IMG/VR virus record: IMGVR_UViG_3300032322_001562
Coordinates: 4,769-68,768 of that record
Source of the DNA: a virus
Length of the DNA: 64,000 nt
Strand: one strand, 5' to 3'
The translations under genes were made by a program, and so were the position numbers. Within the stretch, counting starts at the first letter, position 1; each line of letters starts with the position of its first letter. Of this stretch, positions 2,708 to 23,427 are shown piece after piece. The notes under the pieces are model-generated. The model did no database searches. It worked only from the letters and a program-made list of their open reading frames with translations, and was not told where the DNA came from.

Positions 2708-4200
<1,493 letters not shown>

Positions 4201-4727: not shown

Positions 4728-4874
4728 TTGTCTGAAGAAGAAATTAATATAGTAGTTTCACACAAGTTTGCAGTATTTGTAGATGGAGAATTAGTTTCTA
4801 TCAATAACTGTGACGATAGAATGGCAGCAATACTTAACAGCAGCCCGAGATTTGAGGAGATAGCAGATGATTGA
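4728..4874 (+). CDS. Small hypothetical protein (48 aa, not in ORF track)
   Basis: AGGAGG SD at 4717, TTG start, MSEEEINIVVSHKFAVFVDGELVSINNCDDRMAAILNSSPRFEEIADD; overlaps the next start. Confidence 0.75.
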   Translation: MSEEEINIVVSHKFAVFVDGELVSINNCDDRMAAILNSSPRFEEIADD

Positions 4875-20287: not shown

Positions 20288-21217
20288 TTACTCACTTCCC
20301 TTCATCTCTTCGGTTTTGTAGTATCCGTACGGGTCGGCGACCTCGAACGCGTCGCTAATTGCAGCCTCTGCGGCGCTTCCGTCGTCAACCAACGGGCAAA
20401 TAGCGAAGAATTGGCACTTCCACTTGCAGTCTCTAGTAGGACGTGGATATGCATGCTTGTAGTGGCTCTCTCCAGCATCTAGAGCACTGCGAACCTTGAG
20501 AATATCTTCTAGGGTTCCTTCTAGTCTCTGGAAGAAAGAGCGAAGCGTAAATTGATTGTGGCGGACCTCAATCTGGTCATAGAACGGTGGCTTAGCGTAA
20601 GCGCCGCGCTTAACCTTGCGGAGCATTGTAAATATGCCACCCTCGGAACGCTCATTGCCAGTGTTCTGAGCCTCTTCCAAGACCATGTAGGTAAGAATCT
20701 GCTCATTCATGTGAGCAATCGATCCAAAGTCGGCGAACGAGCCACCAACAGTCTTGAAGTCACGGAACATACGCACGCCATCAATCTTGCGGCGAACACG
20801 CATGTCAATCTTTCCCTGAAGAGTCACACGGCCGTCCATCATTGGGCGCTCGATAATCTCTTCTGTAGAAATCATTTCCAGCTCAGCGTCAATACCCTCT
20901 AGTTCTACCCACTCTAGGTAGCCTTCTAGCATGACTCGGCCAAGCTCGGCTTCGGTTTCTAAAGTAGATGTGTCTCGGAAAGAGTCGTTCATCTTCTTCA
21001 TATCGGCTGCCACTAAATCAGCGTGAGCTTGGAGTAGTGGCTTACCTGTTGAGTAGTACTGGTCAAGTGCCTCGTGGATTCTTGATCCAAGAGCCAGTGC
21101 TCCAGTGAAGTCTTGAACCTTTGGCTGCAGCCTGCGGTAGTAAGTAAACCACCAGCGTCGGCGGCAATCCTTAAACGTTTGGATTTCAGAGTTAGAAATC
21201 CTTACTGGTTCTGTCAT
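20288..21217 (-). CDS. Cas4/RecB-like PD-(D/E)xK exonuclease
   Basis: S.S....FKDC.R, GS.IH, GKID, DFKT, C-terminal C.WKC.F..IC. Confidence 0.88.
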   Translation of the reverse strand: MTEPVRISNSEIQTFKDCRRRWWFTYYRRLQPKVQDFTGALALGSRIHEALDQYYSTGKPLLQAHADLVAADMKKMNDSFRDTSTLETEAELGRVMLEGYLEWVELEGIDAELEMISTEEIIERPMMDGRVTLQGKIDMRVRRKIDGVRMFRDFKTVGGSFADFGSIAHMNEQILTYMVLEEAQNTGNERSEGGIFTMLRKVKRGAYAKPPFYDQIEVRHNQFTLRSFFQRLEGTLEDILKVRSALDAGESHYKHAYPRPTRDCKWKCQFFAICPLVDDGSAAEAAISDAFEVADPYGYYKTEEMKGSE

Positions 21218-23427
21218 TATCGTCCGTTCTTTAGCATGTCTAGAAGCTTGGCTCTATCTTTGACTATCTGGTCAAAGTTGTCGGCTTTGACATCTAGAGC
21301 CTCTATAACTCTTTCTTCAATTGTTCCTTCGGTCACATAGTCGGTGATGAGAATCGAATCGTGAATCTCGGAGCCAATTCTGTGAACCCGGTCCAGGGCC
21401 TGCTTGTAGTCAACAAGTGACCATGGTCTCTGAAGCATAACAAGTCGACGTGCCGCTGTCAAGGTGACACCCACACCACCAGCCTGAGCAGTGAAAAGAA
21501 TCCACTTAATCTTTCCTGACTGGAAGTTATCGATAGCCTGCTGACGCTCCGACTCACTCTGAGCACCAGTAATTAGACCGTGCTTGATATCTTCCTTAGT
21601 CATGCGTGCACTAAGAAGCTCTATCAGTTGTCGAGATACGGCGCAGACAGCCACTTGGTCACCCTCGTAGTCTCCGTTTTTAATGTCATCCATCAGAGCA
21701 TCGACCTTACAGGATGGGTCAGACAATTTAATGCTTTCCTCTCCCGTTTCGGAAACTTCAATCTCGGCGTAAGCGCTGGCAAACTGAACCAACCTTAAAG
21801 TCTGAGTTAGAGGGTTTGGAGCAACCACAACATCTCCAGACGAGTCCGTGCTTCCATCTTTTTCCAGAAGGGTAATCATGTTTTCCAGCATCTGGTTGTA
21901 AGCCTTCTCTTGCTTAGCACCCATCTCAACGTCACGCCGTGAGTTGATTACTTCTGGCAGCCAAGGAAGAACTCTTGCTTTAAGCATGCGACGCATACGT
22001 GGGTTGATTCCAGCGTAGAACTCTTGTTCCATTTCTGGCTTAAGTCCTAGAACCAGCATTCCACCGAAAGCATTGACCATTGTGTTTACATAGCGATCAA
22101 TCCACTTAGTTCTTGTAGGCCACTCTGTCTCGTCAAGCCAGTGAAGAATTGGCCAAAGGTCAATTACATTGTTAGCAATTGGAGTACCGGTTAGTGCATA
22201 GCGAATATCTGCATGACCACTGGCTGCCCAAAGAGCTCTGGTCTGCTTGCTTTTTGGGTCCTTTGACCTGTGAATCTCGTCGGCTATGACTGACTTGAAA
22301 TCAATCATGTTCAGCTCACGTTTGTGAACCTCGCAGCGGGCCTCTGTGACCCTAGAGTCGTGGCCACCGCACTCGGTGCAGCGGGCTAGGGCAATAGACC
22401 CGTAGGGCTGAAGCCTAGAGTGGCCCCTGAGGGATTCCCAGTTGGCTACTACAACAGTTTTACGACAGGTACAACTTTGCTCTGTCGAGCCATAAGATAT
22501 CACGCTCTGCTTGATGGATTGCAGTGTTGCACTGTCTGCAGAGGACCCCCCTAATTTTTCCAGTGGAATGGCAGTGGTCGAGGACGTTAGCTGGTCTTGG
22601 GCATAAACCACATTTGTAGTCTGCATCAGAGAAATATTGCTCGTACTGATCGACGGTGATTCCGTAGCTTGTCTCGACGTGTCTACGTTTAGAGGCAATG
22701 GCTCGTTTTGACTTAGGCCACTGTTTACTATTAGCCCGCTGGCGCTCTCTATATTCTGGATTTCGCTCTCGGAGATCTTTTTCGTAGCAGCTTCTACATT
22801 TTTCTTTTGCGTAGACTCTAATCTCTGGGTGACACTGTGAATAGCGCATATATCAGAGTTTATCACGTCATCAAATGCCTTACGCCTCTGGGTGGCAGAC
22901 CCCTTGATAATCTGTACATCAACCCCGGGCCACCATTTATCAAATTCTCGCTGCCAGTTGCTCTTTAGAGTGTTGGGGCAGACAATTAGGGCCGGAAAAA
23001 CCTGCTCTCCGCGGTCATATAAGCGCTTTAGAGACCTTATAGCCTGGGCGGTCTTCCCCAGACCCGGTTCGTCCGCTAAAAGGGCTCTACGGGCCTTAGA
23101 GAGGAACTCTACGCCTGCCCTCTGGTGTGGGAAAAGGTCTTGGTCGCCATCCTCTAGGACTTCTACGTCCCTCAGGCTGTTGCTGGGGTCAATTCTGCTA
23201 ATTCTCTCGTTTTTAGCCCATTCGGCTAGCACTGGCCCGATTTCTAGGTCTTCCTTAAAGGTTGACCTTAGTGATAGGCAACCAGTCCAAGACAGAGGGA
23301 TAGTCCAAACCTGCTTTTCTTGGCTCCACTTAGAGCCTGGAAGTGCCCTGCAGATCTCTTTCAGCCTCCAGGGGGCATCAATAACGATTTTTTTGCTAGA
23401 GGGGTCTAGCTCTACCTTTACAGGCAT
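21217..23427 (-). CDS. SNF2-family helicase with a ~140-aa in-frame insertion
   Basis: LADEPGLGKT, DEIH, LTGTP, GGVGVTLT, QALDRVHRIG; low-complexity insert at residues ~186-325. Confidence 0.9.
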   Translation of the reverse strand: MPVKVELDPSSKKIVIDAPWRLKEICRALPGSKWSQEKQVWTIPLSWTGCLSLRSTFKEDLEIGPVLAEWAKNERISRIDPSNSLRDVEVLEDGDQDLFPHQRAGVEFLSKARRALLADEPGLGKTAQAIRSLKRLYDRGEQVFPALIVCPNTLKSNWQREFDKWWPGVDVQIIKGSATQRRKAFDDVINSDICAIHSVTQRLESTQKKNVEAATKKISESEIQNIESASGLIVNSGLSQNEPLPLNVDTSRQATESPSISTSNISLMQTTNVVYAQDQLTSSTTAIPLEKLGGSSADSATLQSIKQSVISYGSTEQSCTCRKTVVVANWESLRGHSRLQPYGSIALARCTECGGHDSRVTEARCEVHKRELNMIDFKSVIADEIHRSKDPKSKQTRALWAASGHADIRYALTGTPIANNVIDLWPILHWLDETEWPTRTKWIDRYVNTMVNAFGGMLVLGLKPEMEQEFYAGINPRMRRMLKARVLPWLPEVINSRRDVEMGAKQEKAYNQMLENMITLLEKDGSTDSSGDVVVAPNPLTQTLRLVQFASAYAEIEVSETGEESIKLSDPSCKVDALMDDIKNGDYEGDQVAVCAVSRQLIELLSARMTKEDIKHGLITGAQSESERQQAIDNFQSGKIKWILFTAQAGGVGVTLTAARRLVMLQRPWSLVDYKQALDRVHRIGSEIHDSILITDYVTEGTIEERVIEALDVKADNFDQIVKDRAKLLDMLKNGR
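22460..22849 (-). CDS. Endonuclease VII-family nuclease nested in an alternate frame of the helicase (putative homing endonuclease)
   Basis: YGIT..QY...CGLC...LDHCHSTGKIRGVLCRQCNTAI motif; N-terminal C-H...CxxC. Confidence 0.88.
   Translation of the reverse strand: MRYSQCHPEIRVYAKEKCRSCYEKDLRERNPEYRERQRANSKQWPKSKRAIASKRRHVETSYGITVDQYEQYFSDADYKCGLCPRPANVLDHCHSTGKIRGVLCRQCNTAIHQAERDILWLDRAKLYLS
22857..22865 (-). promoter_or_regulatory. Extended -10 (TG-a-TAAACT) for leaderless expression of the nested endonuclease
   Basis: TGnTAnnnT lies 7 nt before ATG 22849; no SD; same geometry at the free-standing endonuclease gene. Confidence 0.55.

Follow-up and report, generated by a model that had tools for sequence, protein, structure and literature searches.

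We analyzed a window of 64,000 nucleotides (nt) of viral DNA (IMG/VR record IMGVR_UViG_3300032322_001562, positions 4,769 to 68,768), which encodes a SNF2-family helicase interrupted by a long insert. The open reading frame (ORF) of the helicase continues through the insert, and a homing endonuclease gene is nested within the insert in another frame. An earlier note on this DNA had suggested that Cys and His residues at the two ends of the insert bind one zinc (Zn) ion, pinning the ends of a disordered loop together so that the helicase domain still folds. The features concerned are listed below.

21217..23427, minus strand: SNF2-family phage DNA helicase, 736 amino acids (aa), ORF open straight across the insert
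22849..22872, minus strand: cassette-borne leader D186-D-V-I-N-S-D-I193 in the helicase frame, replacing E-H-E-A-Q of the insert-less allele
22460..22849, minus strand: nested endonuclease VII-type (HNH superfamily) homing endonuclease ORF, 129 aa, one base ahead of the helicase frame
22837..22848, minus strand: putative N-side ligand pair C194-A-I-H197 (TGC GCT ATT CAC)
22474..22836, minus strand: read-through loop, residues 198-318, rich in Ser, Thr and Gln, free of Cys and His, predicted to be disordered
22465..22473, minus strand: putative C-side ligand pair C319-T-C321 (TGT ACC TGT), directly before beta-strand 324-329

The host protein showed Pfam matches to SNF2-rel_dom (2.1e-35) and Helicase_C (1.1e-17), and has a SNF2-related N-lobe together with Helicase_C, including the Walker A and DExH motifs. 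Its AlphaFold2 model had a mean predicted local distance difference test (pLDDT) score of 83.7, and its Foldseek matches in the PDB were SNF2 remodeler ATPases. The nested ORF runs from an ATG (22849..22847) to a TAA (22462..22460). It matched Pfam PF02945 (2.6e-16; 59.7 bits against a cut-off of 23.6) and the endonuclease VII family PHROG 2914 (1.1e-31 over residues 4-128), and is identical at 96/129 and 60/126 positions to the nested ORFs of two other cassette DNAs, L006 and L005, respectively. No obvious Shine-Dalgarno sequence was found within the 30 nt upstream of its ATG (22850-22879, minus strand). In the nuclease frame, the window (TGA TAT ATG) and L006 (TAA TAC ATG) each have a stop codon two codons ahead of the ATG.

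Around the insert, the helicase frame reads V-I-N-S-D-I-C194-A-I-H197, 121 residues, C319-T-C321, and R-K-T-V-V-V-A-N-W-E. The 121 residues include 24 Ser, 13 Thr and 11 Gln and no Cys or His; in the complete helicase, Cys and His occur 11 times each. The nuclease frame is one base ahead, and therefore A|TGC yields C194 and TTG-TAC-CTG-TCG yields C319-T-C321; the nuclease tail L-Y-L-S-stop lies over C-T-C-R-K of the helicase. The anatomy given in the earlier note, which placed the feature at 22462-22851, is therefore confirmed: the insert opens with C-A-I-H and closes with C-T-C, these residues lie at the ends of the nested gene (the ATG overlaps the C194 codon and the nuclease tail overlaps C-T-C), and no other Cys lies between them. 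Given the nuclease protein, the probability of an open host frame was 0.033 for the window, 0.17 for L006 and 0.70 for L005, and the host frame was open across the insertion in every cassette protein found.

The extra segment of about 130 residues was absent from all named phage relatives. Of the 120 top-ranking helicase relatives from the protein collection, five had the insert, the window counted; ten were not matched by the segment pattern used and were left unscored. In all 105 scored insert-less relatives, the segment from R-R-K to N-W-E was 20-21 residues long and contained no Cys. The insert was also absent from the 80 best IMG/VR relatives (80/80). One insert-less helicase (P0009) is 97% identical to that of the window and lacks its 134 extra residues; on both sides of the helicase gene, the DNA of its contig (L018) matches the window at 97-100% identity over 1500 nt or more. 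Identity to L018 falls at the insertion point.

22894..22983, minus strand: short upstream putative co-conversion tract (helicase nt 445-534), identity to L018 0.92 against 0.95-0.99 upstream
22084..22443, minus strand: downstream putative co-conversion tract (helicase nt 985-1344), identity to L018 of 0.72, 0.82, 0.89 and 0.93 in successive 90-nt bins and 0.97-1.00 farther away

This gradient matches the expectation for homing with co-conversion of the flanks. Presence and absence in near-identical phages, together with the gradient, indicate that the insert is a mobile cassette. A group I or II intron was rejected, as the region 22200-23100 gave no Rfam match at E<=1 and no intron ribozyme core, and the host frame is open in every relative. 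An intein was rejected as well, since the insert ends in E-Q-S-C-T-C without His-Asn, has no intein domain (no Intein_splicing or Hint Pfam match on the window helicase) and has pLDDT values below 50 at residues 230-315. The Pfam search did detect a separate intein in P0247, a SNF2 helicase of 974 aa among the metagenome representatives. Lobe 1 of this helicase carries an out-of-frame endonuclease VII cassette and lobe 2 a classical LAGLIDADG intein, so that one gene holds two different selfish elements. Ribosomal bypass and split-gene readings were also considered and rejected.

The earlier note had made its proposal depend on whether the terminal Cys and His residues are conserved in related inserts. 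They are conserved in the cassettes of three host families and in nuclease-free short-loop forms. We aligned the loops of the window helicase, four close relatives (P0003-P0006) and three proteins of a distant clade of high guanine-cytosine content (P0122-P0124; L005 is the DNA of P0122). Loop identity to the window in the helicase frame was 30-40%. Seven columns were invariant across the eight sequences, H197, C319 and C321 among them, and the C194 column held Cys in five sequences and His in three. Other cassettes carry comparable D/E-x-[ILV]-[IL]-x-x-x-x leaders ahead of the first ligand. A profile of the loop searched against 1.84 billion representative proteins, a library clustered at 50% identity that conceals close relatives, gave 14 matches. 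These include six further full-length SNF2 helicases, one truncated (P0243), five RNA-ligase-type proteins (three by Pfam PF09414 and two fragments by alignment) and one protein with a dGTP-diphosphohydrolase N-terminal domain (P0253), whose match was weak (E 1.8e-4). The host range of the cassette thus appears to extend beyond helicases to RNA ligases, and probably to a deoxynucleoside triphosphate (dNTP) diphosphohydrolase.

Among the 20 non-window cassette proteins with visible ends, C-[T/I]-C was found on the C-side in 19, the exception being P0253 (N-T-C-N-V-H). On the N-side, 14 of the 20 have C-x-x-H, three have H-x-x-H-C and three have variants. These counts were taken from a single MAFFT alignment and checked by eye against the sequences. 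Such comparison with relatives, rather than the single sequence, indicates that the motif is more than chance.

The ligand pairs were found only together with the loop. Insert-less RNA ligases exist that are up to 92% identical to cassette forms, and none of 11 that we translated has CxxH or CxC at the junction. The pairs are absent from insert-less alleles, and therefore they travel with the cassette and are not native to the helicase. The conservation on which the earlier note had made its proposal depend is therefore observed, with the correction that the terminal pairs belong to the mobile cassette and not to the helicase itself.

The three cassette DNAs share 54 invariant nuclease residues, and we asked by back-translation whether each host-frame loop could also encode these in the same register. 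In 19 other cassette proteins, 22-54 of about 50 positions were nuclease-compatible, against 4-23 in shifted controls. Therefore, all these loops appear to carry the same nuclease gene. For the RNA ligases, scans of IMG/VR returned insert-less genes only, and the nested ORF there rests on this compatibility. A degenerate DNA pattern for C-T-C-x7-N-W-E-S-L-R-x-H recovered L005 and L006; three further contigs matching it (L007-L009) were chance matches in aldehyde dehydrogenase genes and were dropped, and nothing among the genome contigs matched. A distant blastn search of phages with the insert region matched the flanks only, and a search of viral contigs with the loop alignment gave no relatives.

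Four nuclease-free helicases (Big4, Zooman, P0228 and P0229) keep both motifs intact. These short-loop forms read C-P-[VI]-H-G, 18-25 Lys-rich residues, and E-C-T-C-P-G-H. P0228 and Big4 are 73% identical overall and their short loops differ by indels, with the motifs intact. The nearest kin of these helicases (Cece and A3Wally) lack the short-loop segments, which are thus inserts by comparison, and the flanks of the segments are like those of the P0004 cassette. Most simply, they would be scars left after deletion of the nuclease; they may instead represent an ancestral landing pad.

On these grounds we favor, as a reasonably probable interpretation, that the two motifs form a zinc clasp closing the loop; that a metal is bound, which metal it is and that folding benefits are all inferred. 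In the proposed mechanism, the homing endonuclease gene would sit in coding sequence without an intron or intein, and the host ribosome would read through the cassette one base out of register, making a disordered loop some 120 residues long. At the two ends of this compact mobile cassette, a few host-frame codons would supply C/H-x-x-H (at its start) and C-x-C (at its close) as halves of one four-ligand metal site (Cys3His in the window, His/His/Cys plus Cys/Cys in one clade), most likely holding a single structural Zn(II). The ligands would meet at the base of the loop, staple its ends, and so restore the tight turn that the insertion interrupts, namely a helix-to-strand turn in SNF2 lobe 1 and probably a hairpin in the RNA ligase.

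Only five residues span this gap in the insert-less allele, and therefore the loop ends must meet. In the AlphaFold2 model, C194 and H197 stand where a weakly predicted helix begins, and C319 and C321 come just before beta-strand 324-329 (pLDDT 93). Strand residues i and i+2 point to the same side, and C-P-x-H-G resembles the rubredoxin-type zinc knuckle C-P-x-C-G. Both geometries are predicted to place two side chains on one face. The four conserved residues lie at fixed short spacings, as expected for a structural Cys3His site. A single metal site is the best reading because four Cys and His residues occur in short pairs, in three host families, only with the loop, and with exchange of Cys for His.

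Several observations weigh against this interpretation. AlphaFold2 gave no confident site in the window protein, with pLDDT values of 62 for residues 191-200 and 51 for residues 311-320; in the short-loop protein P0228, residues 195-217 were below 50. Three cassettes deviate on the N-side, with C-A-H-C in P0250, C-P-A-H shifted upstream by some 45 residues in P0245, and x-x-x-H in P0253. The last protein (331 aa) further has an upstream C-V-C in addition to its C-side N-T-C-N-V-H, so that, if real, it would retain the ligand set in an altered layout. Cassette DNA comes from three sources (window, L005 and L006), and the other cassettes are known by their host-frame protein. The ATG of the nuclease goes far to explain C194. 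Finally, all three DNAs conserve the nuclease tail K-L-Y-[LV], and codon inertia could thus contribute to the C-x-C signal.

Selection in the host frame could also have maintained the pairs for a role other than a zinc staple, such as an iron-sulfur (Fe-S) cluster, a redox-sensitive disulfide or a contact with DNA or a partner. Fe-S clusters with three Cys and one His occur in CDGSH proteins, the ligand sets differ among clades, and sequence alone cannot separate Zn from Fe-S or a disulfide. However, the same motif serves helicases, RNA ligases and a diphosphohydrolase-like protein, and its presence in unrelated hosts favors a structural role that does not depend on the host. Structural Zn sites typically have four ligands at fixed short spacings, and disulfides are uncommon in the cytoplasm. 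We therefore regard such a role as rather unlikely.

The Cys and His codons could instead be a by-product of the nuclease gene, i.e. the +1 reading of its conserved start and K-L-Y-L C-terminus, with no role in the helicase. The ATG overlaps the TGC of C194, and any NTG start in this register makes a TGN codon in the helicase; therefore C194 alone is weak evidence. In all three DNAs the nuclease L-Y-[LV] lies over C-T-C, and the other invariant loop columns (T, A, T and G) fall on Zn-finger, catalytic or Trp codons of the nuclease. Nevertheless, ligand 1 is His in the L005 clade, where there is no start codon. In L005, the nuclease has A-L in place of S-Q over H197 and V-Q in place of L-S over C321, and the host His and Cys are unchanged. 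A host Cys further requires that the overlying Leu or Val codon end in G and be followed by a pyrimidine. All three DNAs retain that G at the two Cys codons and the requirement holds in 19 of 20 cassettes, whereas the wobble base is kept in all three DNAs at only 17 of 52 conserved degenerate nuclease codons. The nuclease frame thus seems to account for C194 in part, and not for H197, C319 and C321. In addition, the motifs are kept in the four short-loop helicases despite loop indels, which appears to have largely refuted a by-product already; we consider it quite improbable.

The L005 cassette (L005 1041..1581, plus strand) differs from that of the window in the limits of its nuclease gene. 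Lacking an ATG at the position used in the window, this nuclease would need a TTG just ahead of C-H-P or a start farther upstream that overlaps native helicase codons, and it extends six codons beyond C-T-C.

Excision of the loop by a non-HINT reaction of the terminal Cys residues, giving a mature helicase without the insert, is highly improbable. There is a Cys at each end of the insert, and unknown splicing was likewise left open by the authors who described the ShiLan domain, as far as the accessible part of their paper goes (PMC11855218). Nonetheless, the C-terminal junction has no His-Asn, the window helicase has no Hint or intein Pfam match, the loop is predicted to be disordered and is only 30-40% conserved, and the short-loop forms keep the motif with just 18-25 residues between the pairs. 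Recent descent of all cassettes from one copy, with the motifs carried along by chance, is barely credible: the cassettes are all homologous, but the ligand columns stay fixed while nuclease identity drops to 48% and host-frame loop identity to 30%, in hosts of three protein families, a level of divergence that already appears to refute it.

The window helicase has a second Cys/His cluster, which lies outside the cassette.

22324..22380, minus strand: native helicase-family cluster C350-x2-C353-x11-C365-x2-H368, invariant in one of the alignments

This cluster is located between motif Ic and the DExH box, has pLDDT values of 95-96, and is present in most phage relatives, insert-bearing or not. 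It has no counterpart by sequence in solved SNF2 structures, where the PDB matches split at residues 184 and 369; residues 185-368 gave no PDB match in Foldseek or sequence searches, which matched SNF2 cores only. The cluster has been lost in Actinomycetia phage DSL-LC01 and is absent from the L005 clade. The proposed clasp would not depend on it, because the cluster is absent from both the L005 clade and the RNA ligases.

Phage DSL-LC01 is the nearest named relative, with a helicase 69% identical to that of the window, and the two share the gene order DNA polymerase I, RuvC, helicase, Cas4/RecB-type nuclease and RecA-like protein. The window phage is of the freshwater, actinobacterial type. 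It also encodes a second, free-standing endonuclease VII paralogue of 164 aa, 33% identical to the nested one, outside the window (G000:C1 about 3370-3864; L140 1363..1857, plus strand) among Gly-rich tail-fibre-like genes.

If the clasp is real, it would explain how an unspliced selfish nuclease can reside in the ATPase core of a replication or recombination helicase without killing the helicase. More broadly, we give about even chances to a third way, besides introns and inteins, for a family of homing endonuclease genes to live in essential coding sequence. Such genes would never be removed; they would be read out of register as a disordered loop and carry their own portable metal staple over their start and stop. 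They could thereby be accommodated in the tight turns of proteins as unrelated as SNF2 helicase, RNA ligase and dNTP diphosphohydrolase while these stay folded, and their decay would leave a short zinc-stapled scar, raw material for zinc-knuckle insertions. The clasp would also be a small self-contained module, two ligand pairs closing a long disordered loop, that has moved naturally between unrelated folds and may be of interest for protein engineering as a loop insertion tag. For annotation, gene callers overlook such nested nucleases, and the inserts resemble low-complexity junk.

Structural Cys3His and zinc-knuckle sites have four ligands arranged as two short pairs. The cassette pairs differ from these in being about 120 residues apart and belonging to a mobile element, with codons that overlap another gene's start and stop. 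Free-standing homing endonucleases are known in coding regions, such as mobE in nrdA of phage Aeh1, mobA in gene 60/39 of T4 and seg43 in gene 43 of phage 25 (PMC2988022). As described in the accessible part of that article, these resemble the window cassette as intron-less and intein-less homing endonucleases in an essential gene with co-conversion of the flanks. They split the host into two reassembling polypeptides, whereas the host polypeptide of the window is continuous. The F-CphI or DHHRN family comprises homing endonucleases built on the endonuclease VII catalytic motif (PMC6083498, accessible part). F-CphI has, and the nested ORF would have, an endonuclease VII core that serves homing rather than Holliday-junction resolution; F-CphI is free-standing beside its target, while the nested ORF, a candidate DHHRN member, lies inside its host gene.

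A 2025 preprint described a terminase intein containing an endonuclease VII-like ORF that is out of frame. In such inteins the nuclease is of the same family and lies on the same strand in another frame of the host gene, where the host reading is unstructured. However, the nuclease there is enclosed in a HINT splicing domain that cuts it out of the protein, whereas the window cassette has no splicing domain and the loop stays. The terminase large-subunit intein of Mycolicibacterium phage phi1_186018 (L138 957..1475, plus strand) has an endonuclease VII-like ORF out of frame, and its record annotates the terminase only. No equivalently placed C-x-C was found in this intein, but the nuclease alignment is too weak to serve as a control.

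The closest known system is the ShiLan domain, published in 2025 as read-through inserts hiding an out-of-frame HNH (PMC11855218). According to the accessible part of that paper, ShiLan and the window cassette are alike in that the insertion is absent from close relatives, the host frame has no stop, and nearly all of the insertion is taken up by an HNH-superfamily ORF on the same strand in a different frame. They are alike also in having no intron or intein signature, a host-frame product predicted to loop out, and a distribution that suggests homing. The window insert itself shows absence from kin, an open host frame, a hidden HNH ORF and no intron or intein. The two differ in the nuclease, which is of the endonuclease VII type with 129 aa in the window and has 195 aa with flanking zinc fingers in ShiLan, and in the hosts, which unlike those of ShiLan are a SNF2 helicase, an RNA ligase and a diphosphohydrolase-like protein. 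The window-type cassette has conserved host-frame C/H-x-x-H and C-x-C ends, and its likeness to ShiLan is judged from the published text; all eight mentions of zinc in the accessible part of the ShiLan paper refer to the nuclease's own zinc fingers. In that part, how such inserts spare the host protein was left unanswered, and the clasp makes the question testable. A literature search, with supplements and repositories outside it, found neither a description of conserved host-frame Cys and His pairs terminating inserts of this kind nor any SNF2 helicase or RNA ligase described as carrying this cassette. The unspliced insert whose homing endonuclease is out of frame is thus known, and what is new here is the portable ligand clasp and its spread across unrelated hosts.

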